Shown piece by piece: positions 3,217 to 35,900 of a stretch of 35,951 bases of DNA; the stretch's first letter is position 1, and each line of letters starts with the position of its first letter. Source of the stretch: Anaerolineae bacterium (lineage in GTDB: Bacteria > Chloroflexota > Anaerolineae > SpSt-600). Below the pieces are notes generated by a model. The model was not told where the DNA came from. It searched no databases and saw nothing but the letters and a program-made list of their open reading frames with translations. The position numbers were made by a program, and so were the translations under genes. The DNA is taken from the NCBI GenBank assembly GCA_034432815.1, contig DAOUBN010000053.1, positions 1 to 35,951 on the forward strand, in the 5' to 3' direction.

Positions 3217-3785
3217 GTGAGCACCCCTCCACCCCCGATTTTCCCCACCCTCATTTGCTGAGGGTTCGCCAGGGTTCATGGTCCCACCCGTGGGCGGGTT
3301 GCATGGGTGCACCCCTTTGGAGAAGAGAAAAGTGGCGGGGGGACACCCCCCGCAGCCCCCTGGCATGGGGGCTTCGCCCCCCTGCACCCCCCTTTCTGGG
3401 GGGACACCCCCATGCCCCCCGGGAGGGGGCTCTGCCCTCTCCCCCCCATGAATGGGAAAAACAGGAGGTGCAGGGGGACAAAGTCCCCCTGACGGGGGGA
3501 AGTGGGGGGTGTCCCCCCACGAAAACAAAATTGGGGGCGAGCTGCCACCTCCTGAAACCCGCCCACGAGGGGGCCCCTTAAGCCAGGCTGAACCGGAGCA
3601 AACGGGGGTGGGGGATTTATTTCTTCGGGGGCACATCCCCCAAACCCCCTGGCATGGGGGCTTCGCCCCCTGCACCCTCCCGATTTTTGGGGGACACCCC
3701 CCAGGCCCCCGGGAGAGGGCTTCACCCCCTCCACTCCCATTTTGGGGAGCACCCCCACGGCCCCACGGCGTGGGGGTTTCGCTCC
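3217..3785. repeat. Mosaic A/B interspersed-repeat cluster 1
   Basis: A1 module 3243-3315, two B modules (e.g. 3336-3392), a reverse B (~3468-3519), A2 module 3533-3615 and about three more B modules. The same modules recur at five other loci. Boundaries +/-15 bp. Confidence 0.85.
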
Positions 3786-4721: not shown

Positions 4722-4725
4722 TTAA

Positions 4726-5358
4726 TTACTCCTCCTTCCAGCAATCTACCCATCTCTTGTAAGGGTTGTAAGCCATCTTCGTTTTGCGCCATTCTATAGT
4801 GATGCACTTTGTGCGCTTATCCGCAATTAAAGCGGAGATGGCCTCCTTGGAAATCTCCACGCCGCGCGGGTTAGTTCCAGGCTTTGGCAGCTTTATGTAT
4901 ACCTCCTTTCCGAGCTTTTCAAACACTTCTTGCTGAACTTCAACGGGGATGTAATAAAAACCACCCCTGCCTCCCCAGTTAATGTGAACCAGCAAAAAAT
5001 CGCATTTAGGGCAGTATTCCTCTTTAAATTTGCGCGCTTTTTGAGGGTCAACTGTCCAGACAAGCTTAACCCCGCCGATGCTTTTACCGGTTACGGTCTT
5101 AATGGAGATTGGCTTACCAAATAATTTTACATCTACTTCTGGCTCTGTGGGCGGAATTTCAGTTTGCACATTATCCTCACCGAATTTATAAATGAGCAAG
5201 GCTACCAAAATTTTCTCCCGGAGGGAGCCAGCTTCCATTCCCACTTTGCCGGCTCTTGAGCTTTCCATCTCTGCAAGCTGGAACAGATACGGCAATTTGC
5301 GTTCAATTTTCTCCACAGTTTGCGCATCATCAAATATCTCTTCCAATCTGCTCGCCAT
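4726..5358 (-). CDS. Putative type II restriction endonuclease, partner of the methyltransferase
   Basis: 210-aa ORF 4 nt upstream of the MTase on the same strand, in AT-rich sequence. Possible PD-(D/E)XK element (PTEPEVDVKLFG). I do not recognise a family. Start set at MASRLEEIF; the track's extension to 5490 overlaps the upstream gene. Confidence 0.45.
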   Translation of the reverse strand: MASRLEEIFDDAQTVEKIERKLPYLFQLAEMESSRAGKVGMEAGSLREKILVALLIYKFGEDNVQTEIPPTEPEVDVKLFGKPISIKTVTGKSIGGVKLVWTVDPQKARKFKEEYCPKCDFLLVHINWGGRGGFYYIPVEVQQEVFEKLGKEVYIKLPKPGTNPRGVEISKEAISALIADKRTKCITIEWRKTKMAYNPYKRWVDCWKEE

Positions 5359-5419
5359 TTTCTTTCTGCTCTGGAACGATTTGTAGATGGGGCGACCCCT
5401 GAGGGCCGCCCCATTGCTT

Positions 5420-8400: not shown

Positions 8401-8992
8401 AATTGAGGCGCTCGGTGGCGGGGTCAACTCCGTAGGAGACGACTTTGTAGCGGCGGCCGGAGATGTTGAACTCGCTTCCGTGGGTGAGGTGGCCCCCCTG
8501 GAAGAGGTCCATCCCCATTATGGTATCGCCGGGGTTGAGGAGAGCATCATATACGGCGATGTTGGCGGCGGCGCCGGAGAGGGGCTGGACGTTGACGAAG
8601 ATCCGCTCCGGGGGCACCCTTTCGTTGGCGAAGGCCTGGGCAATCCTGCGCTGGGCGAGGGTTTCCACAAAGTGGACGTATTCAACCCCTTTGTAGAACC
8701 GCCTGTCGCCGTAGCGCCGGTAGTGGCTGAGCTGGTGGGCGAAGTCCATCACAAGCTCCATCTCTTCCCTGGTCATCCTCAGGGGAGGGTAGCCTTCGGC
8801 GTAGATGTTGTTGAAGACGGAGCCCAGGGCTTTGAGGACGGGTTCGGGGGCTATGCTCTCGGAGGGTATCAGGATGATCTTGCGGGCCTGTTTTTCCTCC
8901 TCAAAGCGGATGAGGCGGTCTATCTCCGGGTCAATGGCCGAGAGTTCCCCTTCAAGGATCGCACGGTATTCCTGAGCGAGCTTCAGGTCCAT
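5420..8992 (-). CDS. Fusion protein: serine hydroxymethyltransferase + GcvT-like domain + aminomethyltransferase (GcvT)
   Basis: aa 1-~475 are SHMT-like (SESIAPEPVLKALGSVF.NIYAEGYP, GGHLTHGS, PLP-lysine motif TTHKTICGPRG). aa ~505-780 are a degenerate GcvT/YgfZ-like fold (LLVVRGSRAEAFIQ..LLDADGKLLDDV). aa ~785-1190 are a full GcvT (TPLYEEHRKLGAKLIPFAGWEMPVWY..EEHRAVREAAGLFDVAHMG..ARTGYTGEEWGYEIF..ARDSTRTEAGLPLYGHEL). RBS AAGGAGGGGG precedes the ATG. Confidence 0.85.
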   Translation of the reverse strand: MDLKLAQEYRAILEGELSAIDPEIDRLIRFEEEKQARKIILIPSESIAPEPVLKALGSVFNNIYAEGYPPLRMTREEMELVMDFAHQLSHYRRYGDRRFYKGVEYVHFVETLAQRRIAQAFANERVPPERIFVNVQPLSGAAANIAVYDALLNPGDTIMGMDLFQGGHLTHGSEFNISGRRYKVVSYGVDPATERLNYNQIMKLALEYRPRLIIAGYTSYSWAPDWEKFREIADAVGAYLMADIAHTAGLVVAGAHPSPIGIADVITFTTHKTICGPRGAVIITTDEELAQRIDAAVFPGIQGGPHVNKFAAIAVAFKIAQTETFKRIQYKIVENAKALAEAFQKRGIKVAYGGTNTHMVVLDLRSIRTDTGYPVKGEIAARLLDIAGIIVNKNTIPGDTMTPLASGIRLGTPWVTQRGLDAEEMDEIADIMTEVLVNIKPFRYYGRDHELPRGKIELEILKKAACRVDELIDRIPICPPPCRTGYPHYCFLPGKEPVRKPLFEEKAIPAGEGPFLFDLTSLGLLVVRGSRAEAFIQQVNTANLADLRPGMAARSFLLDADGKLLDDVSILRLPDDSRGRQQYLVVTNPENTERVKDWFRALSDGYTIFDRQDILAKVEGPVIVEDLWEDMEEPWRKVAIGVAGKEAVSRLKGLLPWLPEMPLNRFWAGQVDGVETLAARVDYGNGCELLMLISHPDNIARLWGILRQNGFQPSSPQAYRSWRSGADWPSYDGERPDALTLYRSNHRDLFALSKPYFVGEKFLASERPPVQKEEFRWEEKPGPLKHTPLYEEHRKLGAKLIPFAGWEMPVWYTGVLEEHRAVREAAGLFDVAHMGVFEISGEHATRFLDFVTTNYVRWLEDGQSLYSYLLDPDGNVIDDVMIYRIRRDRYIMVVNAANEEKDWAWLNAVNSRRVIVDRENPAKEVDGQAILRNLKDPSSGKDMRVDMALQGPASIHILMSLADRDGREILKRMRRTELAEMTLDGMDVIVARTGYTGEEWGYEIFVHPDDAPRLWNLLLEKGKPFGIKPAGLGARDSTRTEAGLPLYGHELAGPFNIDPIEAGFAPYVKFHKPYFIGRKAIIEKEARRTREIIRFRMNRKGVPRPEPGDPVVNQRGDYIGVVTSCAIDTEGFLTGMALVDRRHAREGSQIGIFAGRARQREVKPVDKLGPGDSVPLPEWATILPRFMRRT

Positions 8993-9004: not shown

Positions 9005-12000
9005 TTAGCGATTCATTTTACCAATTGCAGGCACTTCGGCGCTCTTTGGCTTTTTGCTTTCCAGGACTTTCTCTATTTCCGGGACGTTCTCTCCGAGGAG
9101 GCGGCGCAGTTCAAAGATTTCGTCGCGCAACATGGCCGCTTTTTCAAATTCCAGGTTCTTTGCGGCGATGTGCATCTGGTTCTCCAGTTCCTTTATCATG
9201 CGCCTGATTTCGTCCTTAGGGATTTCCTCACCCCGCACGATGTATTCGGCTTTGCGCTCCGCCACTTTCCGGACTCTGTCTGTGAGGTCGCGCACCTCTT
9301 TGACGATGCTGCGGGGCTCAATGCCGTGGCGCAGGTTGTATTCCATCTGGATGCGGCGGCGGCGCTCGGTCTCTTCTATGGCCCGGCGCATGGATTCGGT
9401 GATGGTGTCGGCATACATTATGGCGGTGCCTTCCACGTGCCTTGCCGCCCGCCCAATGGTCTGGATGAGGGCGGTCTCGGACCGCAGGAAGCCTTCTTTA
9501 TCGGCGTCCAGGATGGCCACCAGGGAGACTTCGGGCAGGTCCAGGCCCTCCCGCAGGAGGTTTATCCCCACCACCACGTCGTAGACGCCAAGGCGCAAGT
9601 TGCGCAGTATCTCCACCCGCTCAATGGTGTCAATTTCCGAGTGGAGGTAATGCACCTTGATGCCCATCTCGGCGAGATACTCGGCCAGGTCCTCGGCCAT
9701 CCTCTTGGTGAGGGTAGTGACCAGGGCCCGCTGCCCCTTTTCCACCCGCTTGCGGATTTCGGAGATGAGGTCATCAATCTGGCCCTTAGTGGGGCGCACC
9801 TCCACCTTCGGGTCCACGATTCCGGTGGGCCTTATAAGTTGCTCCACGACCTGTTCGCTCTTTTCCAGTTCGTAAGGGCCTGGGGTGGCGGAGGTGAAGA
9901 TGACCTGGCGCACCCGCTGCTCAAATTCCTCAAACTTGAGGGGCCTGTTGTCCAGGGCCGATGGCAGGCGGAAGCCGTAGTCCACCAGGGTTTTCTTGCG
10001 GGTGTAATCTCCGTGATACATCCCCCTGAGCTGGGGTATGGTCATGTGGGATTCGTCTATTATGACCAGGAAATCGTCGGGGAAGTAATCCAGGAGGGTC
10101 CAGGGGGGTTCTCCAGGCTTGCGGCGGGAGAGGTGGCGGGAGTAGTTTTCAATGCCGGGGCAGTAGCCTGTGGTCTTCAGGAGCTCCAGGTCGTAGCGGG
10201 TGCGCTGCTCAAGGCGCTGGGCCTCCAGGAGCTTCCCCTGAGCTCTGAGTTCCGCCAGCCTCTCCTCCAGTTCCTGCTCTATGTCCCTTATGGCCAGCTG
10301 GAGCTTTTCGTAAGGGGTGATGAAGTGCTTTGCCGGGTAAATGGCTACGGAGTCCAGCTCCCTGAGGATCTCGCCGGTGAGGGGGTCAAATTCGGTTATG
10401 CGCTCTATTTCATCGCCCCAGAATTCAATGCGGTAGGCAGTCTGGAGGTAGGCGGGCTGGACTTCCACGGTGTCTCCCCGGACCCGGAACCTCCCCCTTT
10501 CCAGGACGGTGTCGTTTCTCTCATACTGGATTTCCACCAGGTGGCGGAGGATTTTGTTGCGGCGGCGGACTTCGCCACGCCTGAGGGTTAGCACCACCTG
10601 GCCGTAGTCCTCGGGGCTTCCGAGGCCGTAGATGCAGGATACCGATGCCACGATGATGACGTCCCGGCGGGAGAAGAGGGCGGATGTAGCGGCCAGGCGC
10701 AGGCGGTCAATCTCCTCATTGATGTCGGCGTCCTTCTCTATGTAGAGGTCGTATTCGGGCAGGTAGGCTTCGGGCTGGTAGTAGTCGTAGTAGCTCACGA
10801 AGTATTCAACGGCATTGTGAGGGAAGAATTCCCGGAATTCGGCGTAGAGCTGAGCGGCCAGGGTCTTGTTGTGGGCGATGACGAGGGTTGGCTTCTGGAC
10901 CTGTTCAATGACTTTGGCCATGACGAAGGTGTTGTGCACAAAGAGCCCTCCCGCACCGGCTAAGAAGGTTTCATTCCCGGCCACGCTCAGGTCGTAAACG
11001 TAAGGCGAGGAAGCGCTTGCCGGCTCAACGCTGGCCACCGGCGACCAGCGGACCTTCAGGCGGCTCTGGAGTTTTCTCCAGCCTTCCCACCACTTTTCAT
11101 CTTCGTGATGCCTGGCCCCGGCTATTTCGCTTAAGGCTTCAAGAAGGCGCTGGAAGCTGGCGCGGGATGGGTTCCGGACCTGGCATTCAATCGCCGAGAC
11201 CAGCTTCTGGCTGACGCCTGCTGCTTGAGCCAGGAGTTTTTGGCTGACGCCCAGAGCCAGCCGCAGGTCCCGAAGGGAGCTCCCGACATCCGGGATTATG
11301 TCTACGCTGGAATTGGCCTTTCTGGCGATTTCCTGTTCCAGAGCCTCTGCTTTTCCGGCAAGGGAGAACCCGATGTGCTGATGGAAGGCGCGCAGGTTTT
11401 CCTGGCCAGATATGCTCACCTTCCAGTACCAGTCGCCCGGGTGATTGCCGTTGGTTGCCCGCTTGCGCACGCGCTGAATGCGAGCCCAGATGCCGAAGCG
11501 CAACAGCGCATAGGCCAGTTCGTAAGCCAGGCGCTGGCTGGCCGTGGTCACGGTCACGCATCCTTTATCACGCTCAACCGTCCCATCGCCATCAAAGTAG
11601 GCTTGCAGGAGTATGGCCAGCTGACGGTTGGACAGTTGAGGCCAGAAAGGAGGCAGGTGCTTCTCGCGAGCCACCCGGCCTGCCAGGCGGGCAAACAGCC
11701 GGGCAAGGGGAGCCGATGAGATCTGGAAATCGCTTGAGGGTCGGATTGTGAAGCGGAGCCCCAGTTCTGTCAGGCTTTCCGCGATGTGTTCCCTCAGTTG
11801 AGGGGAGCGGTTGGCCAGGATGAGGTGATTCCCTTTGGCCGTCGCCGTCCCTTCGGCCAGGTAACAGCCAAGCAGCCTCAGGAAAGCATCAGTAAGGCGC
11901 AATTCCAGGGGCAACCCTGAGCGCTCTAACCTGCCGGCCACATGAGCCTGCTCCGGGTGCCAGGTTCCCTGAAAGCTCTCCGTTGCCTCTGGACAGGAGT

Positions 12001-12670
12001 AATGAGGGGCGAGGAGGGCGGTGAATTCCTGCCCGCCCCTCGCCGCGATGTATTCGGCAATTTGTTGACGGGCTTGGATGAACAGGCCTGCGTCCTGCAG
12101 GTAATCCAGCAGGTTCAGGTCTGGAAGGTCCTGCGCAGGGGCAGGAATGCTGAGGGGGATGGGTATGTAATCCCCGGGGCGAATTTCGGTGGTAGGAAGC
12201 AAGTGCATCTGTCCGTCCCGGAGCACCCAGAGGTTGTGGTCTCCGGTGATGACCGCGCTTCTGCCGCATTTCAGGGTCACCCGGAACATCCGCTCGGGGG
12301 CGCGATGCCGGATGAAAGCCATAATGGGTTTCGGTTCCACCTCGCCTGTGCGGGCGTTGAAGCTCAAAGTCCAGTATGAGCCGGGTTCAGGGCGCGCCAC
12401 CACCGTGTCGCCGTAGTGTTCCACTCTGGAGGCTCTTTTTATCGCAGCTTCAATAAGTTCCCCGATAGGGACAAGCTCAAAGCGGAAGCCATCGCTCTCC
12501 TTCCGGGCGATGAAGACGGGCTCGGCGCCGTCCAGGCTCTTGCCGGTGCCCGTGGCTCCCAGCAGGGTCTGGTAGCGGTATCCTTTGCGGATACCTTCTA
12601 CCAGTTTTTCTATGGCCTGGGGCTGGTCGCCTGTGGGTTTGAAGGGGGAGACGAGTTTAAACCTTTCCAT
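9005..12670 (-). CDS. uvrB: Excinuclease ABC subunit B (UvrB), interrupted by an intein
   Basis: [38 protein letters not shown]|...|[25 protein letters not shown], helicase motifs and a C-terminal UVR motif ([17 protein letters not shown]). Start set at ATG 12670. The track's 56-codon extension to 12838 is translated repeat DNA. Confidence 0.9.
10931..12538 (-). mobile_element. Intein (536 aa, Ser1...His-Asn / Thr+1) with LAGLIDADG homing-endonuclease and HTH regions, inserted in the UvrB Walker A motif
   Basis: It begins SLDGAEPVF directly after GATGTGK and ends GGLFVHN directly before TFVMAKV. Block B is [18 protein letters not shown] motifs are [11 protein letters not shown] and [15 protein letters not shown]-like HTH is [25 protein letters not shown]. 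Block F is [12 protein letters not shown]. Length is 1608 nt, in frame. Confidence 0.85.
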
Positions 12671-13235
12671 TTTTGTTTCCCCACCCTCGTGGGCTCGGGG
12701 TTCGCCATGGTTCAGGATCCCACTCGTGGGCAAGTTGCGGGAGTTGCCTTCTCGCTCCTTTGATTGGTTTTTCTGGGGGCACATCCCCCATACCCCCTGG
12801 CATGGGGCTTTGCACCCTGCACCCCCGATTTTCCCCACCCTCGTTTGCTCTGGGTTTGCCCACGTTCAGAGTCCCACTCGTGGGCGGGTTGCGGGAGTTG
12901 CCCCCTCGCCCCTTGATTTGTTTTCCTGGGGGGACACCCCCCAGACCCCCCGGGAGGGGGCTCGCCCCCTCCAACCCCTTGAGGTTGTTTTCCCGGGGGC
13001 ACATCCCCCATACCCCCAGCATGGGGGCTTCGCCCCCCCTGCACCCCTCTTTCCCCACCCTCGTTTGCTCAGGGTTCGCTGGGCTTCAGGGGCCCCCTCG
13101 TAGCCAGGTTGCAGGAGTTTCCCGCTCGCCCCTTGATTTGTTTTCCTGGGAGGACACCCCCCAGACCCCCGGGAGGGGGCTCGCCCCCTCCACCCCCATT
13201 TTGGGGACACCCCCCAGGCCCCCCGCCAGGGGGTT
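12671..13235. repeat. Mosaic A/B interspersed-repeat cluster 2 (three same-orientation A1+B units)
   Basis: A1 copies at 12679-12758, 12833-12912 and 13053-13132, each followed by 1-2 B modules (e.g. 12928-12978). Confidence 0.85.
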
Positions 13236-13256
13236 CTATGTTTCCTCCTCGTTTAA

Positions 13257-16253
13257 TTATACCTCCACGCGGGAGAGGTCAGCAATGCCTCTGGGGAGGA
13301 GGGCTATGCGCTGGAGGAGGGCGAGTCTGTTCTCCCTTATCTCCCTGTCCTCCACCATGACAAAGACTTCGTAAAAGAACCTGTCTATCGGCTCTACAAG
13401 GGGCATGAGCAGGGCGAAGAGGCCGTCAATGTCGTTGACCTTTCGCCTCTTCTCCTCCGCCTCCAGATATGCCCTGTAGAGGTCGTGTTCGGCGGGTTCG
13501 GTGAAGAGTTCCGGGCGGAGGGGCAGGAGCTCAGGCACATCTTTCACTATCCTGGCCGGCCGGATGAAGGCAGTCATGACGGCGGGGAACTCGGGTTTCT
13601 GCGCCCAGCGGGCCAGGTCCTGCAGGGTGACCCAGGCTAAATAAGGGTTATCGGCCCGCTCGGCCAGGACGGCTTCTATGAGGTCGGGCCGGTAGCCTCT
13701 CTCCTGGAAGAGGCCCCGCATCCTCGCCACGATGAATTCCAGGGCCTCCTGCAGGATTTCCCCGGTGATGGCCAGCGGGAGAAGGCGAGCCGCTTCGGCC
13801 AGGGCCTCCCGGAGGGACAGGCTTATGCCTTTGTCCACCAGGATCTGGACAAGGCCCAGGGCCGTCCGGCGGAGCCCGTAAGGGTCGGCTGAGCCGGTGG
13901 GAGCAAGCCCCGCTCCGAGAAGACCCACCAGGCTGTCCAGTCTGTCGGCAATCCCCACCACTGTGCCGGGGATGGTGCGGGGAAGGGAATCGCCGGCGAA
14001 GCGAGGCAGGTAGTGCTCAAAGATGGCTTCGGCCACCTCGGGATCTTCCCCCCAGTGGAGGGCGTAGTGGCGGCCCATGGTCCCCTGCAGGCTCGTTAGT
14101 TCTACAACCATCTGGGTGGCAAGGTCGGCCTTGCACAGGCGGGCGACTCTGGAGGCCTTTTGGCTTTCCTCTTCGGAGAGGCCAAGGCGCCGGCAGAGCC
14201 ACGGCACGAGTCTTTCCAGCCTGCTCACTTTGTCCAGCATTGACCCGAGCCTTTCCTGGAAGGTGAGCCCCCCGAGCTTCGGCAGGTATTCCTCAAGGGG
14301 CTTTTTGAGGTCTGTTGCGATGAAGTAATCGGCATCGGAGAAGCGGGCCCGCAGGACTTCTTCGTTCCCCCTGCGGACTATGTCCAGGTGGCGGGTGTCC
14401 CCGTTGCGGACGGCGATGAAGTAGGGGAGGAGTTTGCCTTCCTGGGAGAGGACAGGGAAGTAGCGCTGGTGTTTCTTCATCACGGTTATCAGGACTTCCT
14501 GGGGGAGGCGGAGGAAGGCGGGGTCAAAGGACCCCCGGAGGGCCGTCGGCTTTTCCACGAGATTGGTTACCTCTTCCAGCAGAGCCGGGTCATCCGGGAT
14601 CAGACCTCCCACTTCCGAGGCCAGTTCGGCTGCCTGCCTCCTTATTTCCTCCCGGCGTTTCTCCAGGTCCACCACGATCCCGGCCTCTTCCATGGCTCTG
14701 AAGTAGTCTTCAGCCCTGGGGATTTCAATGGCAGGGGAGCCTTCGGGCCTGAGGCCCCTGGTGGTGCGGCCGGAACGGACCCCGGCGTATTCAAAGCTCA
14801 CCACTCTGGCCCCGAAGAGGGCCACGATCCAGCGGATCGGCCTTGAGAACCTCACGCCGCTTTCGTTCCAGCGCATTGTGAGGGGGAAGCGCAAGGATGA
14901 GATGAGCCTGGGGAAGAGTTCGGCCAGGACGGAGGGGGTTGCTTCCCCTTTTTTCCGGACCACGGCCACCACATAGCGCTTGTCCTCGTATTCCCTTATC
15001 TGGAGATCTTCCACTCTCACGCCCTGCTTTTCGGCGAAGGCAATGGCGGCTCTGGTGGGTTTTCCCTCCGGGTCAAAGGCTGCCGAAGCCGGAGGCCCTT
15101 TGACCACCATTTCCTCTTCTTCCTGGCAGGAAGCGAGGTTTCTGATGTAGAGGACAAGGCGGCGGGGGGTTCCGGCCACGTAGAGGCTTTCGTAGCGGAG
15201 GCGAGCCTGGGCGAGGAGATCCGGGGCAAGTTCCCGGATCTGCTCCACTGCCAAGCTCAGGTCGCGGGCTGGCAGCTCTTCGGTGCCGATTTCCAGGAGG
15301 GCATCGGCGTAGGGGGGCAGGTCTTCTGTTCCCTCCGGCTCAGGGATCGCTTCTGCCTTCTGCCGGGTTGGGGCTCCTTTCAGCCAGGGGAAGCCCGCTT
15401 CCTGGCGCTGGTTCAGGTAGAGCTGGGCGGCCTGGCGGGCCAGATCCCGCATCCGGGCGAAGTAGGAGGCCCTCTCAGCCACCCCTATCGTCCCCCGGGA
15501 GTCCAGGAGGTTGAAGGTATGGGAGCAGCGTAGGATGTAATCGTGGGCCGGGACTACCAGGCCCCTTTCCAGGCAGCGTTTAGCTTCGGCCTCGTATTCG
15601 TTGTAGAGGCGCCGGAGCCTTTCCACATCCGCTTCTTCAAAGTTGTAGATGCAGTGCTCCACTTCCGAGCGGAGGAGGATATCGCCGTAGGAGTGGATCC
15701 CGTCCCAGTCAATTTCCCATACGCTCCTGACTTGCTGGAGGAACATGACAATGCGTTCAAGGCCGTAGGTTATCTCCACGGCCACGGGGTTCAGGTCAAT
15801 TCCTCCCGCCTGCTGGAAGTAGGTGAACTGGGTTATTTCCAGGCCGTCAAGCCAGACTTCCCACCCGAGTCCCCAGGCTCCGAGGGCCGGGGATTCCCAG
15901 TTGTCCTCCACGAAGCGGATATCGTGCTGGCGGGGGTCTATGCCCAGAACCTGAAGGCTCTCCAGGTAAATTTCCTGAGGGTTGCCGGGGTCGGGCTTGA
16001 GGATGACCTGGAACTGGAAGTGGAGTTGCATCCGGTTGGGGTTCTCCCCGTAGCGTCCATCGTCGGGGCGGTAGGATGGCTCCACGTAGGCCACGTTCCA
16101 GGGTTCGGGCCCGAGGACCCGCAGGAAAGTAGCCGGGTTCATGGTCCCGGCCCCAACTTTTTCGCTGTAAGGCTGCCATATCAGGCATCCCCTGTCGGCC
16201 CAGAACCTCTGCAGGCGGAGGATAACTTCCTGAAATGAAAGCGCTTTGCCCAT
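13257..16253 (-). CDS. glyQS: Glycine--tRNA ligase, fused alpha (GlyQ) and beta (GlyS) chains
   Basis: The N-terminus ([78 protein letters not shown]) closely matches GlyQ. The remaining ~700 aa are GlyS-like. Single 998-aa ORF. Confidence 0.9.
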
Positions 16254-16262
16254 AAATGCCTC

Positions 16263-17030
16263 CTACAGGAAATTTTCCACCTCAAGTTTTTCAAGGAATC
16301 TGGCGGATTTCAGGGGCCTTTCCATGTGGTAAACGATGTAGCGCCTGATGAGGGCTTCAACTTCCACGCTGAGGTTCCGGGGGACACGCAGGAGCTGGCA
16401 GAGTTCGTATTCCCGGGTGAGGAAGAAGCGCATGACCCTGAGGGCGCTGGCAGAAAAGGGGGTAGCGCCATCCTTCCCCTCGCCACAGCGGGGGCAGAGG
16501 GCACCACCATCGGCTGGGGAAAAGTAATTGACGTCAGCTTTGAGGGGCTCCCGGCACTTCACGCAGACGAAAAGTTCCGGCCTGTATCCGGCCAGGGAAA
16601 GGAGGCGAAGCTCAAAGAAGCGCAGGGCCGGCCATATTCCCTGTCCCCCTTCCAAGCGGTGGAAAGTGTCCAGAAGGAGGTGGAAGACCGCAGGGTTCCT
16701 GTCCTGCTCAGCCATGAAGCCATCGGTTAGTTCGGCTATGTAATGGGCGTAGCCGGTGCGGATCAGGTCTTCCTTCAGGGCCTGGAAGTATTCCAGGGCC
16801 TCGGCCTGGGTTATCAGGTCAATCTCTTTCCCTTTAGCCACCAGGAGCTTGACGTGGGTGAAGAGCTCCAGGTGGCCGGCCTTGCGGCTCGTGGGCTTCC
16901 GGACGCCCTTAGCCAGCAGGCGGAGCTTGCCCTCCTCAAGGGAATACACTGTTAAGAGCCTGTCGGCCTCCCCAAAGTCCGTCCGCTTGAGGACTATAGC
17001 GGTGATCTTGTAAAGCCTTTCCCTGTTCAC
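16263..17030 (-). CDS. recO: DNA repair protein RecO
   Basis: The size, the N-terminal OB region (AIVLKRTDFGEADRLLTVYS...GKLRLLAKGVRK) and the zinc motif (CVKC...CPRCG) fit RecO. The GTG start overlaps the upstream stop (GTGA). Confidence 0.8.
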   Translation of the reverse strand: MNRERLYKITAIVLKRTDFGEADRLLTVYSLEEGKLRLLAKGVRKPTSRKAGHLELFTHVKLLVAKGKEIDLITQAEALEYFQALKEDLIRTGYAHYIAELTDGFMAEQDRNPAVFHLLLDTFHRLEGGQGIWPALRFFELRLLSLAGYRPELFVCVKCREPLKADVNYFSPADGGALCPRCGEGKDGATPFSASALRVMRFFLTREYELCQLLRVPRNLSVEVEALIRRYIVYHMERPLKSARFLEKLEVENFL

Positions 17031-17395
17031 CCTCCCCTCACCGTTCCGTATCTGAAAGGCCTCTTCCAGTTTTCAGCCATTTTCTTCTGGTAGAGTTCTT
17101 CGGCGTCCAGGCCCAGCGCTGAGAGGAGGTGGAGGATCCGGATTATGGCGTCAATCAGTTCTTCCCCCACCTTCTCCAGGGGCTCGCCTTTTTTGTAAGC
17201 GTCGGTGGCTTCGGAGATTTCGGAATGGATGAGGGCGAGCATTTCCCAGATGCGGCTCTGGTCGCTGCTGAAGCCCTTAGCGTCCACCAGAGCCCTGACT
17301 TCCGCCATTTTCTCGTTGAGGCATCCTTCCCGCACAGCTCCTCCTTCTGGATTTTGGATTATATCACTTTCACCGGAGAGGGACAATTTCACCAT
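17027..17395 (-). CDS. Small MazG-like nucleoside-triphosphate pyrophosphohydrolase
   Basis: EISEATDAYKKGE...VGEELIDAIIRILHLLSALGLD is a MazG-type EExxE/D helix pair. The start is uncertain; ATG 17308 is an alternative. Confidence 0.65.
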   Translation of the reverse strand: MVKLSLSGESDIIQNPEGGAVREGCLNEKMAEVRALVDAKGFSSDQSRIWEMLALIHSEISEATDAYKKGEPLEKVGEELIDAIIRILHLLSALGLDAEELYQKKMAENWKRPFRYGTVRGG

Positions 17396-17454
17396 CTGGC
17401 AGTGGCGATTCAGAGGCAGATTTCATGGGAGCGCAAAGGGGCTATGCCCTCCTT

Positions 17455-17830
17455 CCAAGGAACCCGGAAGAGATGGCCCGCGAAACCGGCGCCCTCCAGC
17501 TGGTTAGGCCGCCTCATCGGGGCTCTCCTTGAAAGAGAAGGGGCTTCCTTTGAGCCTCATCGCCCAGACCTTGCCTGCCCAGAAGGCTGAGACCGCTCGC
17601 CGCCGGGTTCGCCAGGCCAGCCAGAATAAAGGGCACACACCCGGCGGGCTATCTCCTTCTGCTGACCAATTTACCTGCTGGCGTGTGGGGAGCAGAGGCG
17701 ATTTTGGGCCTCTACCGACTGCGCTGGCAGGTGGAGTTGCTTTTTTCTCCGGTTGAAAGACCCCGTTCTGGCCCAGGTCTGTTTGCTGGGCAAGGTGCTG
17801 GCTCTGCTCCTTATGGAGGGGGTTGCCGGG
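17455..17830 (+). pseudogene. Decayed IS4-family-like DDE transposase remnant (internally deleted, frameshifted)
   Basis: One frame reads ..GFARPARIKGTHPAGYLLLLTNLPAGVWGAEAILGLYRLRWQVELLF, which includes the Y-x2-R-x3-E part of the YREK signature. After a frameshift near 17745-17755 it continues as LKDPVLAQVCLLGKVLALLLMEG. An upstream fragment reads EEMARETGALQLV. No intact ORF. Confidence 0.5.
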
Positions 17831-18042
17831 GTAGCGGGGGGACGGAGTCCCCCTGACGGGGGGAAGTGGGGGGTGTCCCCCTACAAAAACAAAATTGGGG
17901 GCGAGTTGGCAACCCCTGAAACCCGCCCACGAGTGGGACCCTTAAGCCAGGCTCAGCCGCAGCAAACGGGGGTGGGAAAAATGAAAAAAGGCGGGGGGGA
18001 CATCCCCCGCATCCCCCCGGGAGGGGACAAAGCCCCCTCCGC
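17830..18042. repeat. Mosaic A/B interspersed-repeat cluster 3
   Basis: A reverse B (~17836-17885), then A2 at 17897-17976, then one more B. It directly abuts the transposase remnant. Confidence 0.8.
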
Positions 18043-24974: not shown

Positions 24975-25800
24975 TCTTTTTCACCACTCTCGTTAGCTTT
25001 AGGTTCGCCAGGGTTAAGGGGCCCACTCGTGGGCGGGTTGAAAAATGGGGGTGGAGGGGGCAAAGCCCCCTTGCATCCCCCCAATTTTTTCCCACCCTCG
25101 TTTGCTGAGGGTTCGCCATGGTTAAAGGGCCCCCTCGCGGGCAGGTTGCGGGAGTTGCCTTCTCGCCCCTTTAATTGGCTTCTTTGGGGGGACACCCCCC
25201 ACACCCCCCGGGATGGGGCTCCGCCCCCTCCACCCCCGTGATTTGTTTTTTCCGGGGGCGCATCCCCCACCCCCTGGCATGGTGGCTTCGTCCACTTGCA
25301 CCTCCGATTTTTCCCCACCCTCGCTTGCTGGAGGTTCGCCGAAGTTAAGGGTCCCACTCGCGGGCGGGTTGCGGGAGTTGCCTTCTCGCCCCTTTAATTG
25401 GTTTCTTTGGGGGACACCCCCAACCTCCGGGAGGGGGCGAAGCCCCTTCCACCCCCGTAAAAGAGGAAAGAGGGAGTGCAGGGGGATGGAATCCCCCTGG
25501 CGGGGGGAAGTAGGGGGTGTCCCCCCACGAAAACAAAAAGGGGGGCGAGCTGGCACCTCCTGAAACCCGCCCACGAGGGGGCCCCTGAAGCCAGGCTGAG
25601 CCGCAGGAAACGGGGGTGGGGATTTGTTTTTCTGGGGGCACATCCCCCAACCCCCGCAGGGGGGCGAAGCCCCCATGCACCCCCGATTTTTCCCACTCTT
25701 GGGCGGGTTGAAAATTGGGGGTGGAGGAGGCAAAGTCCCCCTGCATCCCCCCAATTTTCAGGAGGACATCCCCACGCCACTGGAGGGGGGCAAAGCCCCT
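24975..25800. repeat. Mosaic A/B interspersed-repeat cluster 4 (largest)
   Basis: A1 copies at 24981-25039 (truncated), 25091-25170 and 25313-25392. A2 at 25540-25622, an A fragment at 25691-25709, and at least 8 B modules in both orientations. Confidence 0.85.
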
Positions 25801-25828
25801 TACAGCCCTGCTATTGAGAAGCGCGGGT

Positions 25829-25857
25829 TTGCAAAGTGGTGGCCTTTGTGATATAGT
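25829..25857 (+). promoter_or_regulatory. Sigma-70-like promoter (extended -10) of rpsF-ssb-rpsR
   Basis: TTGCAA (25829-25834), a 17-nt spacer, then TATAGT (25852-25857), with TG at 25849-25850. Confidence 0.5.
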
Positions 25858-25901
25858 TATCCAGACTTTGACCAGACCTGGAAAGGAGGAAGGGAAAAGG
25901 G

Positions 25902-26192
25902 ATGAGGGAATACGAGCTTGCCTGCATTCTGAGCCCGGAACTGGAGCAGAGCAAAATTGATTCCACCCTGGATGAACTCAAGCGGGTGGTGAAAGGCCTT
26001 GGAGGGGAGGTCACAGGAGTGAACGCCTGGGGCCTGAGGCGTTTCGCCTATCCAATCCGGAAGAAGAAAGAAGGTTACTACGTCTTCCTGAACCTTCAGC
26101 TCCCCCCTGAGGCTGTGAAGAACCTGGACCATGCTTTGAAATTCAACGAAAATGTGCTTCGCCACCTCATAATAAAAACCTCGGAAGAATAG
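25902..26192 (+). CDS. rpsF: 30S ribosomal protein S6
   Basis: MREYELACILSP...EVTGVNAWGLRRFAYPIRKKKEGYYVFLNLQ, in the conserved rpsF-ssb-rpsR context. Confidence 0.9.
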   Translation: MREYELACILSPELEQSKIDSTLDELKRVVKGLGGEVTGVNAWGLRRFAYPIRKKKEGYYVFLNLQLPPEAVKNLDHALKFNENVLRHLIIKTSEE

Positions 26193-26203
26193 GGGGCAGT
26201 GAG

Positions 26204-26572
26204 ATGGCAAGGGGGCTTAACAAGATAATCCTCATCGGGAGCCTCGGAAGGGACCCGGAACTGCGCTATACCCCGAGCGGGAAACCCATGGCTTCCTTCA
26301 GCCTCGCCACAAGCCGTTCCTGGGTCACCTCTGATGGGGAGAAGAAAGACGCCACCGAGTGGTTCAATGTGATCGCCTGGGGCAACCTGGCGGAAATCTG
26401 CAGCCGCCGCCTCAGAAAAGGCTCAAGGGTTTACATAGAAGGCCACCTCCAGACAAGAGCCTGGGACGATCCCGAAGGCCACAGGCATTACCGCACAGAG
26501 GTGGTGGCCAGCGAGATGATAATCCTTGATGACGAAGAAACGCCAGAGGAAGAGGACGAAATCCCATTCTAA
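26204..26572 (+). CDS. ssb: Single-stranded DNA-binding protein
   Basis: LNKIILIGSLGRDPELRYTPSGKPMASFSLA...WFNVIAWGNLAE..YIEGHLQTRAW and an acidic tail ending DEIPF. Confidence 0.9.
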   Translation: MARGLNKIILIGSLGRDPELRYTPSGKPMASFSLATSRSWVTSDGEKKDATEWFNVIAWGNLAEICSRRLRKGSRVYIEGHLQTRAWDDPEGHRHYRTEVVASEMIILDDEETPEEEDEIPF

Positions 26573-26584
26573 AGGAGGGAGAAA

Positions 26585-26860
26585 TTGGCAACAGAGCTCA
26601 GGGGACAGGAAGCCCAGCCCAGAAGGTTCGTTCCGAAGAAGAAAGTTTGTTTTTTCTGCGTGGAGAACATTGACGAGATAGACTACAAGCAGCCAGAACT
26701 GCTCCGCCGCTTCCTGAGCGAGTGGGGGAGGATCCAGCCCCGCCGGAAAACGGGGACCTGCGCTAAACATCAGCGGAAACTGAGCCTGGCAATAAAGCGG
26801 GCCCGCTTCCTCGGCCTCCTGCCCTTCACTTCCGAACACATCCGCAAATACGGCATGTAG
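26585..26860 (+). CDS. rpsR: 30S ribosomal protein S18
   Basis: [67 protein letters not shown] start with GGAGGG upstream. Confidence 0.9.
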
Positions 26861-26870
26861 AGGGGATTGA

Positions 26871-28031
26871 ATGGCCAGGCGCAGGCCGCAACCGCCAAAG
26901 CCCGAGACCAAGAAGGCCAGGGCTATCCGGAAGAGGGAAGAACGCCAGACCCTCTACGTATACATAGGCCTCGGGGCAGTGGCTTTCGTCGTTCTCCTCC
27001 TGCTGGCCCTGGGCCTCTATCAGGAATTTTACGTCAAGCCCGCTTCCCCTGTGGCCATCGTGGGCTCCACCCCTATAAGGACCGATGCATACCAGAGGAG
27101 GGTGCGGCTGGAGCGTTTCAACCTCAAGCGCAACATTGAAGCGCTGGAAAGCCAGAAAGCCCTGCTCAACCCGCAGAAAGAAGAAGACAAATTCTACATC
27201 CAGCTCATAGATTCCCAGATCCAGTCCCTCCAGTCCCGCCTGGAAAACATCGGTCTGGTGGTGCTGGAGCAAATGATAGAGGAAGAGCTCATAAGGCAGA
27301 AAGCGGCCGAGGAAGGGGTCACAGTGACCCCGGAGGAAGTTCAGCTCTACATTGAGCGCCTCTTCGGCTATGACCGCAATCCCCCCACCCCTACACCGAC
27401 CCCCATAACTTCCACACAAACCCTCACCGAAACGCCTGCTCCAGCTCCGACGCCCATGAGCGAGGAGGATTTCCGCAGGATGTATCAGTCTTTCCTCTCG
27501 GTCCTGAGCAGGGAGGCTGGGATTTCAGAGCAGGAATACCGTGAGATGGTGGCCGTCAACCTCCTCCGGGAGAAACTCCGTCAGGTCCTGGGGGAGAAAG
27601 TGCCCACCACCGCCGAGCAGGTCCACGCCCGCCACATCCTGCTGGATTCGGAGGAAGAAGCAAAGAAAGTGCTGGAAGAGCTCCGGCAGGGGGCCGATTT
27701 CGCCGAACTGGCGCGGAAATACTCAAAGGATGAAGCGACGAAGGAGAACGGGGGAGACCTCGGCTGGTTCCCCAGGGGGGAGTGGGAGCCAGCTTTTGAC
27801 GCCGTGGCCTTTTCCCTCAAAGTGGGGGAAATAAGCGATATCGTGCGCACCTCCAGAGGCTACCACATAATCAAAGTTGAGGGGCACGAAATGAACCGCG
27901 AGCTTGACCCTGATTATCTGGCGAGCAAAAGAGCCGCGGCTCTGGATGAGTGGCTCCAGCAGGCCCGATACTCCGATAAAGTCCGGAGACTCTGGAAGCC
28001 CGAGATGGTCCCTCCAGAGAAAACCCCTTAA
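26871..28031 (+). CDS. Membrane-anchored parvulin-type peptidyl-prolyl isomerase (PrsA/SurA-like)
   Basis: N-terminal TM segment (LYVYIGLGAVAFVVLLLLALGLY). PpiC domain ARHILLDSEEEAKKVLEELRQGADFAELARKYSKD..GGDLGWFPRG......GYHIIKV. Confidence 0.8.
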   Translation: MARRRPQPPKPETKKARAIRKREERQTLYVYIGLGAVAFVVLLLLALGLYQEFYVKPASPVAIVGSTPIRTDAYQRRVRLERFNLKRNIEALESQKALLNPQKEEDKFYIQLIDSQIQSLQSRLENIGLVVLEQMIEEELIRQKAAEEGVTVTPEEVQLYIERLFGYDRNPPTPTPTPITSTQTLTETPAPAPTPMSEEDFRRMYQSFLSVLSREAGISEQEYREMVAVNLLREKLRQVLGEKVPTTAEQVHARHILLDSEEEAKKVLEELRQGADFAELARKYSKDEATKENGGDLGWFPRGEWEPAFDAVAFSLKVGEISDIVRTSRGYHIIKVEGHEMNRELDPDYLASKRAAALDEWLQQARYSDKVRRLWKPEMVPPEKTP

Positions 28032-28094
28032 GCTTTCACAGTTCGCCCAAGAAGTCCTCGCACGCCGACCATCAGGCTCGGAGAACCATCCTGC

Positions 28095-28400
28095 TGCAGG
28101 ATTGGGGCACATCCCCCAGGCCCTCTGGACCCCCTTCTGGGGGACACCCCTCGCAGCCCCCGGGATGTGGCAAGCCCCCTCTACCCCCTGGAAAAGGGGG
28201 TGCAGGTGGACAGGGTCCCCCTGACGGGGGGAAGTGGGGGGTGTCCCCCCCCACGAAAACAAAAGGGGGCGAGTTGGCATCTCTTTAAACCCGCCCGCGA
28301 GTGGGACCCTGAGGCCAGACTGAGCCGTAGCAAACGGGGGTGGGGAAAGAGGGGGTGCAGGGAGACGGAGTCCCTCTGCCGGGGACAAAGCCCTTTCCCT
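28095..28400. repeat. Mosaic A/B interspersed-repeat cluster 5
   Basis: Two forward B modules, a reverse B at 28199-28251, A2 at 28265-28345 and another reverse B. It lies between convergent genes. Confidence 0.8.
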
Positions 28401-32744: not shown

Positions 32745-32840
32745 GAGCAACAGGGGGTGCAAGGGGCCCCAGTCCCCCTGCCAGGGGGCTTTGCCCCCGG
32801 ACCCCCTTTTGGGGACACCTCCCACAGCCCCCGTTGGGAA
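32745..32840. repeat. Mosaic repeat cluster 6 (B modules only)
   Basis: GGGGTGCAAGGGGCCCCAGTCCCCCTGCCAGGGGGCTTTGCCCCCGGACCCCCTTTTGGGGACACCTCCCACAGCCCCC, i.e. one reverse B-like and one forward B-like module. Confidence 0.6.
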
Positions 32841-32914: not shown

Positions 32915-35900
32915 ATGACATGGCGTTTTTTGAACCTTTTAGTGATAGCGAGCATGCTTTTCTCCCACTTAGCCAACCCCATCGGGCACCCTTTCCAGAG
33001 CCCTCTACCCACGCCCACTCCAGTTCTCTCCCCCACCTTTTCAAGCCCCCTGCCTGCCCCTCAGGAGCAGGTCCCATCCGGCCCTGAGGTGCCTCCTCCC
33101 CAACCTTTGCCTCCACCCGAGACCGTTCCCGTCCAGCCCGGGCAGACCATTGCCCTGGCTCAGGGCCGCGTTACCTTGACCATACCTGAAAAGTCCCCTC
33201 TCCGCAAGGTCACCCTCAGAGTGACTCAACTCAGGCCACTGGCCGGGCATGAAGCAGGCCTGGCTTTCGCCTTTGACCTGACCGCCTCTGACGCGGGAGG
33301 TAAAACCCTCAGCCTTCTTCCCGCCCCCATAACGGTCAAACTCAACCTGAATGGCCTGGTAAACTGGGCCTCCCGCCCTGACTGGCTCCGCCCCTGGGTT
33401 GGATTCTGGGATGAAAAGGGCCAGAACTGGCAGACCATAGAACCCATCTTCGTGGACGAGCAAGCCGGAGTAATAGCCTTCACCACCGATCACCTCTCCA
33501 CCTTCGGGGCCGGCACCCAGGGAGTTACAGTGAGTGGATGGATCCTCAACTTCAACGACACCAGGACAGACCTCTTTTCCGGCGCCTTAATCTGGGAGTA
33601 TCCTTTTGACCTGCCCCCAGGACCCGGGGGGATCAGGCCGGACCTGCGCCTCTCCTACAATAGCCGCAGGCTGGATGGGATCCTCCCCTGGGCCCAGTCC
33701 GATGGCGTGGGCTGGGGCTGGAGCCTGGACATAGCCGACATCCTCTGGCGCAATGTCCACCGCTGCAAGGGGAGCGGAGAATCCGATTATTACCTCTGCT
33801 GGGATAATGTCCCGCTGCTGGTGCTGAACGGGGAAGCCCTGAAACTTATCCCGGAGACCTCCCTCCCGAACGACATCCAGTATAACGGACCAGGATCCAC
33901 AACCTACAGCTTTCACACCGAAGACGAGAGGTTCTGGCGCATCCTCTGGAAACCGGGGTCTGAGAACGGCTACTGGGAAGTAACCCTCAAAGACGGCACG
34001 CGCTACCTTCTTGGAACCACCCCCGATAGCCGGCAGGTGTTGAGGGGCACCGCCCATGCCACCGTCCGCTGGCGGGGGAAAGGGATAATCTACCCCACGG
34101 GCCTCACCGTCACCTTCACCTACACTGAACAGACCCTGGCCCAGCAGTGCGAGCTCTTCAAGGCGGCAAACTTGATTAAAAGCACCGACACCTGCCACGG
34201 AGACCATTCAGACTCCGAAAGGCCAAGTTCCCTCACCCAGATTGAATCCCCGGGAACGAGGGTGAAGGTCCTCTGGGCCCGCCGCTGGAACGGCAACGGG
34301 CCCAACGACGGCTTCGGCCCCGAAGCCTACCGCGGGGATTTCGCCTCCGCCGGGATGGCCGCCATCTTCTGGCAGACCGACGCCGTCCAGAAAGTCGTGG
34401 TGGAGCGCCGGCGAGGGGATGGGACCTGGCAGCCTGTGCGGGAGGTCCGCTTCACCTACGGGACTTACACCCCGATGGATGAGGGGAACAAACGACTGCG
34501 GACCCTCACCGCCCTGCAGGAATGGGCCCCGGAGGGAAGCGCCTGGAAAGCCCTGCCCCCCTTCACCTTTGAATACACTGGATATCCCAATAAGGACTGG
34601 TGCAACACCTACTTAATCAAGACCTGCTCCGAGTGGGACCAGGCCCAGTTCTACTACCCCCGCCTGACCCGCATCAATAACGGATATGGAGGGGTGATTG
34701 AGATCAATTACGCCACCCCCGATGGGGGCTACTGGCAGGCGAAGAACTACCGGGTGGCCCAGCGGAAGGTCACCGACGGGCTGGGAGGAGGATGGAGAGA
34801 AGTTTACGCTTATTCCGACAATCCTGATGGACGATGTTACCTCTCCAGTGCGGATGCGGAAAGGTGCAAGTGGTATGATGAATTCCCGGACATAGGGGGA
34901 GGGGTCAGGGCCACCGGCGGCCTCTTCCTGGGCTACTGGGAGGTCACCGTGACCTTCCAGGACCTCGCCGGCGCCGCCCAGAGGGTGGAATGGACCCGCT
35001 TTGCCCTCCCCGGGGGGCCCACCAACGACCCCTGGCCCGCCCGGGGCCGCCCACGGGAGCGCCAGGTCCGGGATCCCGGCGGAGCTGTCCTCCAGGCCAT
35101 CGCCTACACATATGGCTTTTCCCCCACCGTAGACACCGCAGGCAAGGCGAACTTCGTCTTCCTCCAGCGCCAGGATATAACCACTGACGGCCGCACGGCC
35201 CGAACGGAATACCGCTACGACGCCTACGGGAACGTCACCGCCGTCTTCGAGCACGGCTTCCTTGACGTCTCGGGGGACGAGCGCTCCACCCACCGGGGCT
35301 ATGCTTCCAACCCCACCGCCTGGATCGTGGACAAAGTCGCCTGGGAGAACGTTTACGACGGCATCACCGAAAACACCGGGGGAGAAGCGCTGCGCACCCA
35401 GACCCGCTTCTACTACGACGGGGCTTCTTCCTTCACCACCCCACCGGTGAAGGGATTGCTGACCCGGGTGGACCGGGGCAAAGAAGGCTGGGGCTGGGGC
35501 ACCGAGCAGGCCGCCTACGACGCCTACGGCAACCCCACCGTCATCACCGACGCCCGGGGCTTCGCCACAACCTTCTCCTACGACCCCACGGGAGTCTACC
35601 GGCTCTCCGAGCGCAACGCATTGGGGCATATCACCCGCTATGAATACTACGGCATCAACGAGAGCGCCCCCGGTAAGGGCCGGGGGCCGGTGGGAGCCCT
35701 GAAGCGGGTTGTGGACCCCAACGGAGCGGCCACCGCCTACACCTACGACCCCTTCGGCCGGCTGCGGACGGTGGTGCGCCCCGGAGACTCCTGGGACTAC
35801 CCCACTGAAGAATGGCTGTATTACGATGGAGTGGACCACTCCTTCACCGACCGCTGGCCCCTGATGGTCGTGCGCCTGGTACGGGGGACGCCGGGGGCAG

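Follow-up and report, generated by a model that had tools for sequence, protein, structure and literature searches.

An apparently undescribed family of hairpin-rich mosaic repeats in intergenic DNA of Anaerolineae

What fills the long spaces between ordinary genes in contig DAOUBN010000053.1 of the Anaerolineae bacterium assembly GCA_034432815.1? An original prediction, made on all 35,951 nucleotides of this contig (hereafter the window), proposed that six intergenic gaps are assembled in variable order from two modules, A (with subfamilies A1 and A2) and B, of a repeat that it could assign to no family. Our analysis shows that both modules belong to a single ~150-nt unit, and we hold, with somewhat more confidence than doubt, that the units form a selfish, non-autonomous and non-coding intergenic repeat restricted to this lineage, akin to repetitive extragenic palindromes (REPs) and their bacterial interspersed mosaic elements (BIMEs), to Neisseria intergenic mosaic elements (NIMEs) or to the small noncoding repeats (SNRs) of Deinococcus.

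The repeat family is readily detected in the window. A degenerate 56-nt pattern drawn from the invariant columns of module A, CCACYCYCRYNNNCTNNNGNTNNGYNNNNNNTNANNNNCCCMCYCGYRGSCRRGTT, matched 11 times, with 0 matches expected from 100 shuffles. Seven matches lie on the + strand (3245, 12681, 12835, 13055, 24984, 25092 and 25315) and four on the − strand (3556, 17920, 25564 and 28288), in agreement with the seven forward A1 copies and four reverse A2 copies first reported. Using nhmmer with models built from the copies, we placed repeat sequence at 3219–3780, 12675–13240, 17828–18040, 24977–25808, 28101–28384 and 32752–32838, which bears out the claim of six gaps and gives a total of ~2.5 kb, or 7% of the window. 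A repeat search of the window returned direct families of 63–230 nt and inverted pairs of up to 138 nt in these six gaps only, and the gaps are enriched about eightfold in runs of five or more G or C, with 124 such runs in 3.5 kb as opposed to 150 in the remaining 32.4 kb. All six gaps are truly intergenic and flanked by ordinary chromosomal genes, including those for a MoaB-like protein, a ThaI-type restriction-modification pair, a fusion of serine hydroxymethyltransferase (SHMT) to GcvT, UvrB, fused GlyQS, RecO, an ABC-class ATPase, a major facilitator superfamily (MFS) transporter, rpsF-ssb-rpsR, a parvulin-type isomerase, a pterin-binding enzyme and a tetratricopeptide-repeat protein. Most arrays have no transposase gene beside them; they sit between housekeeping genes, and the unit length of 150–155 nt is not a multiple of three. 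The family is non-coding, confined to intergenic DNA and a genuine mosaic interspersed family.

Alignment of the copies with their flanks showed that A and B are halves of one unit, with A followed by a T-rich linker and then B in 10 of 11 copies. From its 5' end the unit (~150 nt) comprises a conserved A-core and a variable A 3' part (together module A, ~85 nt), the linker and the G5/C5 hairpin module B (~55 nt). The A-core holds two short CCCAC/GTGGG palindromes, GCCCAC-N4-GTGGGC and CCCAC-N2-GTGGGC. Module A occurs in the window as six full forward copies, one forward copy truncated after its first 66 nt, one 22-nt fragment and four full reverse copies. Module B occurs 10 times inside units, about 13 times as solo or partial forward copies and as 4–5 reverse halves (15 forward and 5 reverse matches at E<1e-4), confirming that it exceeds 20 copies in both orientations. 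The six full forward units constitute type 1 (A1) and the four backward units type 2 (A2), a division supported by identities of 69–84% within type 1, 79–87% within type 2 and 65–74% between the types; the differences span the whole unit, B included. Rather than freely recombining modules in variable order, the basic object is therefore the A+B unit, arranged in head-to-tail arrays. All four type-2 units lie in a recurring composite of a forward B, a short A-rich spacer and the inverted unit, with a further forward B in three of the four. Of the three hairpins in module B, which had been described as a chain of mutually exclusive mini-hairpins, B-H2 and B-H3 do share one G-run and exclude each other, but B-H1 stands alone.

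The arrangement of the six gaps is given below. Comparison stretches, here and later, carry L numbers: L002, L003 and L006 (GCA_042408195.1) are from Anaerolineae metagenome-assembled genomes (MAGs) at NCBI, L005 is from GCA_025062375.1, L009 is a contig from the Joint Genome Institute (JGI), L010–L016 are from JGI metagenomes, and L017 and L018 are from a 161-kb JGI contig (Ga0453288_0185).

3238–3391, + strand: gap 1, full type-1 A+B unit (nhmmer unit model E=1e-34; pattern match at 3245).
3393–3444, + strand: gap 1, solo B (nhmmer B model E=1.8e-7).
3463–3619, − strand: gap 1, full type-2 unit, convergent with the type-1 unit (nhmmer E=8e-44; alignment).
3615–3780, + strand: gap 1, three solo B at 3615–3677, 3684–3739 and (partial) 3741–3780 (nhmmer B and unit models), the last stopping 8 nt from the methylase stop codon.
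12675–12979, + strand: gap 2, two tandem type-1 units, 12675–12827 and 12828–12979 (nhmmer E=2e-38 and 5e-41), antisense to glyQS/uvrB, the first beginning 5 nt from the uvrB ATG (12670, − strand; start assigned by homology with L005 and L006).
12983–13240, + strand: gap 2, solo B 12983–13047, type-1 unit 13049–13198 and partial B 13203–13240 (nhmmer).
17529–17820, + strand: gap 3, frameshifted remnant of an IS4-family transposase gene (open reading frames; NCBIfam transpos_IS4_1 E=1.4e-7, below cutoff).
17828–17982, − strand: gap 3, type-2 unit (nhmmer E=1.3e-43).
17994–18040, + strand: gap 3, solo B, 17 nt from the stop of the ABC_ATPase gene (nhmmer B E=6.5e-7).
24977–25088, + strand: gap 4, truncated A-core 24977–25042 joined to an inverted B half 25046–25072 (nhmmer).
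25084–25457, + strand: gap 4, type-1 unit 25084–25238, solo B 25241–25306 and type-1 unit 25307–25457 (nhmmer), the units being sense to the flanking MFS and rpsF genes.
25472–25625, − strand: gap 4, type-2 unit, convergent with the preceding type-1 unit (nhmmer E=5.9e-41; inverted pair 74% complementary).
25622–25808, + strand: gap 4, solo B 25622–25685, A-core fragment with inverted B half 25691–25743 and weak B 25760–25808 (nhmmer).
28101–28189, + strand: gap 5, partial B 28101–28128 and solo B 28137–28189 (nhmmer).
28195–28384, − strand: gap 5, type-2 unit 28195–28349 and a further type-2 B half 28351–28384 (nhmmer), ending 22 nt from the stop of the pterin-binding gene.
32752–32838, mixed strands: gap 6, type-2 B half on the − strand (32752–32793) and partial B on the + strand (32811–32838) (nhmmer).

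Two of these gaps contain local duplications. Gap 2 carries a 220-nt tandem duplication (12767–13197, 85% matches), and in gap 4 a 67-nt chimera of A-core and inverted B half occurs twice, at 25022–25088 and 25692–25758, with 93% identity.

We then asked whether the unit exists beyond the window. The pattern is present in at least two other Anaerolineae MAGs at NCBI (at least three loci) and in seven JGI metagenome stretches (L010–L016), and the unit forms head-to-tail arrays of 2–7 copies with a period of ~152 nt in at least nine other contigs. The 161-kb JGI contig, from a close relative (PpiC 88% identical), has three repeat clusters within 10 kb. Arrays are head-to-tail in all nine of nine other contigs and in gap 2, inverted units being found in the window's type-2 subfamily only. 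We also observed a further module, C (AACCTCTCC...CCAGAATT...CCCTTCCCTCGCAGGGAAGGGGG), which is absent from the window and in other genomes closes arrays after an A-core (L013 10774–10860, L014 6802–6860 and L016 6430–6500) or stands in for the A 3' part within units (L003 ~470–540 and L011 ~1050–1110).

Chimeric or collapsed sequence produced by assembly or binning was one explanation to consider, given that the organism's own short-read contigs break off within repeat sequence (L021 corresponds to window 25620–28241 and L001 to 15989–17622). Against it, the unit occurs in independent NCBI and JGI assemblies, in contigs as long as 56–161 kb and at orthologous positions in several assemblies, and an independent Logan contig matches the repeat edges at 99.9% identity. 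Its occurrence across assemblies rules such an artefact out, leaving it a negligible probability. Searches of known families were likewise negative: Rfam gave no match at gathering thresholds over the whole window, relaxing the cutoff to E<=1 for gaps 2 and 4 brought up nothing but noise, with a top score of 28.9 bits where 45 are required, the Chloroflexi-1 motif (in Rfam) had no match in the window, no tRNA or tmRNA was found there, and the pattern was absent from the viral contigs, plasmid records and phage records searched. No published description of Anaerolineae or Chloroflexi repeats like these was found in the literature searched. The units are thus neither confined to the window, nor an artefact of its assembly, nor part of a known repeat or non-coding RNA family in the collections searched, and the family is apparently undescribed, as originally proposed.

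Comparison of orthologous gaps revealed how copies come and go. Between glyQS and uvrB, L005 has a spacer of 38 nt; in the window, L006 and L009 the spacer contains units, always antisense to glyQS, and reaches ~600 nt. Upstream of rpsF the gap measures 92 nt in L019 and 177 nt in L020, both from relatives, against ~900 nt with arrays in the window and L017, and the latter two arrays are oppositely oriented. Relatives thus differ in whether a given orthologous gap holds repeats, which shows that the family gains copies at new intergenic sites over evolutionary time. The 38-nt 'empty' spacer of L005 (12995–13032), in which nhmmer found no repeat, weakly resembles the first ~30 nt of module A, with 9 to 363 of 2000 shuffles scoring equally well in local alignments to four different units; it is possibly the relic of a lost array. 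In both the window (12670) and L006 (13622), the first unit of the array ends 5–20 nt from the uvrB start codon, so that the reverse complement of the A 5' end (GGGTGGGG / GGGGTG) occupies the position of the ribosome-binding site.

Turnover is also apparent from the copies themselves. Units group with others of their genome rather than with those at the orthologous position. L002_4825 and L006_13309, which lie on different contigs of one MAG, share 82% identity but do not exceed 70% with the window units in the orthologous gap. This clustering indicates lineage-specific amplification or homogenisation. Degenerate, decaying units were seen in L006, L002 and L007, and near-identical neighbouring units in L009. 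Gaps 2 (in L007), 3, 4 and 5 coincide with breaks in synteny relative to relatives, and the clusters as a whole are associated with synteny breakpoints, IS4-family landing sites and short-read assembly breaks.

Despite this turnover, the consensus persists. At the four-fold degenerate sites of glyQS, the window and its relatives share 46–55% identity, where ~39% is expected at random for that composition; units from different genomes are 60–76% identical. Lineage consensus sequences agree best in the A-core (80%), followed by B (76%) and by the A 3' part with the linker (64%). The family consensus thus stays 60–80% identical at a divergence that nearly saturates synonymous sites. An element that needs recognition by a trans-acting factor would be expected to behave in this way, its copies being born and lost while the consensus is conserved.

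Two further readings centre on the A-core. In one, the A-core palindromes are double-stranded sites for a dimeric host protein and the arrays serve chromosome organisation or regulation. The A-core is the best conserved segment, the 2-nt spacer of its second palindrome is too short for a stable hairpin loop, and an extra base in L009 falls in a spacer and leaves both half-sites intact. Against this, the units of the window itself have a degenerate first palindrome (72% pairing in helix 1), close relatives differ by gain and loss of sites, copies decay and we identified no candidate protein; we regard this reading as quite improbable. In the other, which is a little less improbable and still unlikely, the repeat would be more than selfish DNA in decay, the A-core would be the recognition site of a dedicated protein, either a replication-coupled recombinase specific for single strands or a host factor organising the chromosome, and the arrays would represent a new protein–DNA system of the clade.

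A recombinase of that kind would explain why the six clusters of a possibly origin-proximal window share one polarity. Within the window, all type-1 units and almost all solo B face forward and all type-2 pieces backward, so the predicted orientation lock between A1 and A2 is real there. The count of 11 of 11 nevertheless overstates it, because A2 is by construction an inverted unit, always in a composite with forward B flanks, and because tandem copies within a gap are not independent. The signal that remains is one polarity in six of six gaps (2 × 2^-6, p ~0.03). It is not kept in relatives: in L015, same-type arrays separated by 3 kb point in opposite directions, and L017 has arrays in −, − and + orientation within 10 kb. 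Polarity is not a family rule. Of the causes suggested for it, linkage to transcription is at odds with type-1 units that are antisense to glyQS/uvrB yet sense to the MFS gene and rpsF. Paired element ends fare no better; two gaps do contain convergent A1/A2 pairs, yet adjacent pairs are 74–75% complementary and non-adjacent ones 75–79%, and co-evolving doublets like those of REPINs (REP doublets forming hairpins) were rejected on the same ground. A replication-linked bias may exist, on a basis of six loci. The contig may adjoin the replication origin, on one replichore, given the jag-like KH/R3H gene and parA at its left end (12–2010, +) and a cumulative GC skew that climbs between ~4 and 28 kb.

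We folded alignments of 15 and of 38 units with RNAalifold. Neither set gave a consistent global fold, both yielding inconsistent long-range pairs, and the covariation term on 38 units was −0.14 kcal/mol. When pairs were counted in hand-specified helices, only the B hairpins showed compensatory changes. B-H1 (G5–6, loop, C5–6 and a 3-bp extension; ~21 nt) has GC13/UA8/CG6/UG4 at pair 105–123, and B-H3 (~16 nt) has GC29/AU4 at pair 141–148, AU being the compensatory variant of type 2; both palindromes are found only within the 55-nt module or the 150-nt unit. The hand-drawn helices of module A (H1a, H1b, H2, H3 and H3w) were unsupported, being invariant or often broken, and covariation was found only in B. 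Departures to G-U and to A-C are equally frequent, which gives no sign of one transcribed strand and is as expected for palindromes at the DNA level. Folding energies were not better than those of shuffles (DNA, z from −1.9 to +0.5). Promoter-like sites are absent from the units, the sole one seen, at rpsF (25829–25857), being outside the repeats; terminator-like matches number 3 against 3.1 in shuffles, without enrichment, and a terminator or promoter role was rejected. The palindromes look like features of DNA, or of RNA from either strand, rather than those of a dedicated RNA gene.

These data weigh on the proposal of structured RNA arrays, in which the host would maintain a small RNA gene or a cis element of untranslated regions serving as mRNA stabiliser, terminator or insulator. 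Such selection would account for a consensus conserved beyond neutral divergence, for the compensatory changes in B and for the persistence of arrays downstream of glyQS in four relatives, and the 7-bp stem of type-1 units, with a T-rich tract behind it, does score as terminator-like at 25148 and 25371. We judge the proposal distinctly unlikely in view of the near-zero covariation term, the invariant or broken A helices, the lack of strand asymmetry between G-U and A-C, the unremarkable folding scores, the promoter and terminator results, the absence of an Rfam match, the presence of units in both orientations relative to flanking genes and the many visibly decaying copies.

Are the repeats instead parts or derivatives of a transposon? 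In gap 3, the 3' end of the IS4-family remnant (motif YRLRWQVELLF; 39% identical over 49 aa to the L017 transposase by tblastn) abuts the B end of the type-2 unit. In the same configuration, the 161-kb contig contains an intact-looking 1371-bp IS4-family insertion sequence (IS; L017/L018 13556–14926) with its own inverted ends, CATCAAGTTAAG (12+ nt), and B-like sequence continues on both sides beyond them. This arrangement indicates that the element inserted into the repeat, inside a B module, and does not end in it, and we rejected the repeats as IS4-family ends on this basis. Solo copies of the end CATCAAGTTAAG occur at array edges (L003 842–853, L010 5167–5178 and L013 10001–10012), and the end is absent from the window. 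Insertion of IS elements is known from REPs as well. One further transposase gene was seen, at L018 395–835 (−), encoding an IS200-like Y1 protein of 146 aa that scores 64.9 bits with the IS200 model and 25.7 with that of REP-associated tyrosine transposases (RAYTs). It is flanked on both sides by TGGCACGAAGTGCCAAAGA.GGCTGATTTCCAAT, a hairpin that bears no relation to the A/B repeat and does not occur in the window, and on this evidence we discarded the gene as the cognate enzyme.

Two mobile-element models can be weighed on this evidence. If the units, or the inverted B–A–B composite, were MITEs, miniature transposable elements with inverted repeats, they would be deletion derivatives of an IS moved by its transposase, the candidate being the IS4-family element. 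The inverted B modules flanking type-2 units do resemble terminal inverted repeats, and an IS4-family gene or remnant abuts a unit in both the window and L017; on the other hand, the intact element has ends of its own that the window lacks, with B-like sequence outside them, no target duplications were seen at the edges of units or arrays, and head-to-tail arrays of 4–7 units are not MITE-like. For the IS4-family element the MITE model is largely refuted, and overall it is very unlikely.

The second model is that of REPs and BIMEs proper, with the hairpins of B and/or the A-core mobilised as single-stranded DNA by a RAYT encoded elsewhere and polarity arising from coupling to the lagging-strand template. 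In its favour, short GC-rich extragenic palindromes occur here in clusters and IS insertion into the repeats resembles that known for REPs; one polarity is common to all six clusters, the window may adjoin oriC on one replichore, as jag and parA at its left end and the rising cumulative GC skew suggest, and GTAG-type REPs have been reported for Chloroflexi (PMC3733652). REPs carry a conserved unpaired GTAG or CGTC tetranucleotide at one end of the palindrome (PMC3733652), yet neither is conserved next to the B-H1, B-H3 or A-core palindromes in the 38-unit alignment, GTAG being present in some copies only. Moreover, the units are head-to-tail and not alternating as in BIMEs, the 150-nt unit far exceeds the length of a REP, no Y1_Tnp domain or RAYT is encoded within the window, the L018 gene scores as IS200 with unrelated hairpins, and both polarities occur within 3–10 kb in relatives. 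We consider RAYT-driven mobilisation unlikely.

The account we prefer is that of a selfish, lineage-restricted repeat without an enzyme of its own. Copies arise at new intergenic sites over evolutionary time, as the filled and empty orthologous gaps show, and arrays would grow and shrink locally by tandem duplication or unequal recombination, a step suggested by the 220-nt duplication of gap 2, the 67-nt duplicate in gap 4 and the near-identical neighbours in L009. Recombination within the palindromic G/C runs would scramble arrays, yielding the inverted type-2 subfamily, solo B and chimeras of A-core and inverted B, and hence the mosaic appearance. Type-2 units are dispersed only as the fixed composite of forward B, inverted unit and forward B. 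Individual copies decay, as seen in relatives. New copies would be made through a sequence-specific trans-acting factor not encoded in the window, because the consensus, above all the A-core, lies well above neutral divergence between genomes; the likeliest candidate would be a recombinase or transposase acting on hairpins.

Several observations weigh against this account. The search for a mobilising enzyme turned up none, since unrelated hairpins flank the one Y1 transposase seen (in L018), and array ends show no target-site duplication, terminal inverted repeat or target motif. In four of five relatives, arrays share their place downstream of glyQS and their orientation even though neutral divergence is close to saturated, which could equally reflect selection for a host function, and conservation of the consensus could reflect a DNA- or RNA-binding host protein rather than a mobility factor. 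The sequence seen amounts to ~36 kb from this genome and no more than 21 kb from any one relative.

The likeness to known systems, drawn in the original prediction to BIMEs and Deinococcus SNRs, appears to hold in kind. As in REPs and BIMEs, extragenic GC-rich palindromes form clusters from recurring modules and linkers, cluster units are amplified in tandem, subfamilies are lineage-specific, clusters serve as IS landing sites and intergenic space is filled up to gene boundaries. The family differs in its ~150-nt unit with several palindromes (20–40 nt for a REP), its head-to-tail rather than alternating order, its lack of a GTAG/CGTC tag and of an identified cognate RAYT, and a consensus common to genomes whose synonymous sites are near saturation. 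For BOX, NIME and SNR elements the likeness is one of architecture only. Like BOX of Streptococcus pneumoniae (boxA-boxB(n)-boxC), the family is a modular, non-coding intergenic element with modules of ~45–60 nt and no encoded protein, with one module in variable copy number (here B) and a distinct terminal module (here C, in relatives); unlike BOX, it forms long tandem arrays of whole units, and its host belongs to another phylum; kinship in sequence with BOX is not expected. With NIMEs and SNRs it shares intergenic mosaics of several modules, a sizeable share of local sequence, and association with IS or phage insertion and rearrangement. NIMEs are 50–150-bp units bracketed by 20-bp dRS3 inverted repeats, and the Anaerolineae family has no bracketing repeat and is apparently unrelated in sequence to NIMEs and SNRs. 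Mycobacterial interspersed repetitive units (MIRUs) similarly form head-to-tail arrays of 50–150-nt units at many intergenic loci, including those between co-directional genes, with copy number varying between relatives. MIRUs are co-oriented with their operon and carry short open reading frames overlapping the flanking genes, whereas the orientation of the Anaerolineae unit varies (antisense to glyQS/uvrB and argH/argG, sense elsewhere) and its length of 150–154 nt is not a multiple of three.

Other features of the window lie in its genes. The UvrB gene (9005–12670, −) has an insertion of ~530 aa with Intein_splicing, LAGLIDADG_3 and HTH_3 domains; the UvrB proteins of close relatives measure 685–691 aa and are without an intein-type insertion. 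SHMT and a GcvT aminomethyltransferase domain are fused in a single 1190-aa reading frame (5420–8992, −), a fusion also present in L006. Between this gene and gap 1 lies the ThaI-type restriction endonuclease with an N4/N6 DNA methylase (3789–5490, −), a pair that is not at the corresponding position in L006. Finally, a 36-nt direct repeat (CTACGACGCCTACGG...) has copies 300 nt apart (35215–35550) within a 408-aa reading frame (34613–35839, −) that has no Pfam match.

Together, our results describe a new repeat family of a kind already known, that of the hairpin-rich selfish or neutral intergenic repeats of E. coli, Neisseria and Deinococcus, rather than a new type of system. Anaerolineae are abundant and mostly uncultured, and their repeat content is apparently undescribed in the collections searched. 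In this clade the family shapes both genome architecture and MAG quality, making up ~7% of the contig, interrupting short-read assemblies, marking breaks in synteny and attracting IS elements. The survival of its consensus beyond neutral decay implies a conserved partner protein, and the unit model could serve as a marker for the clade, with array length available for strain typing.

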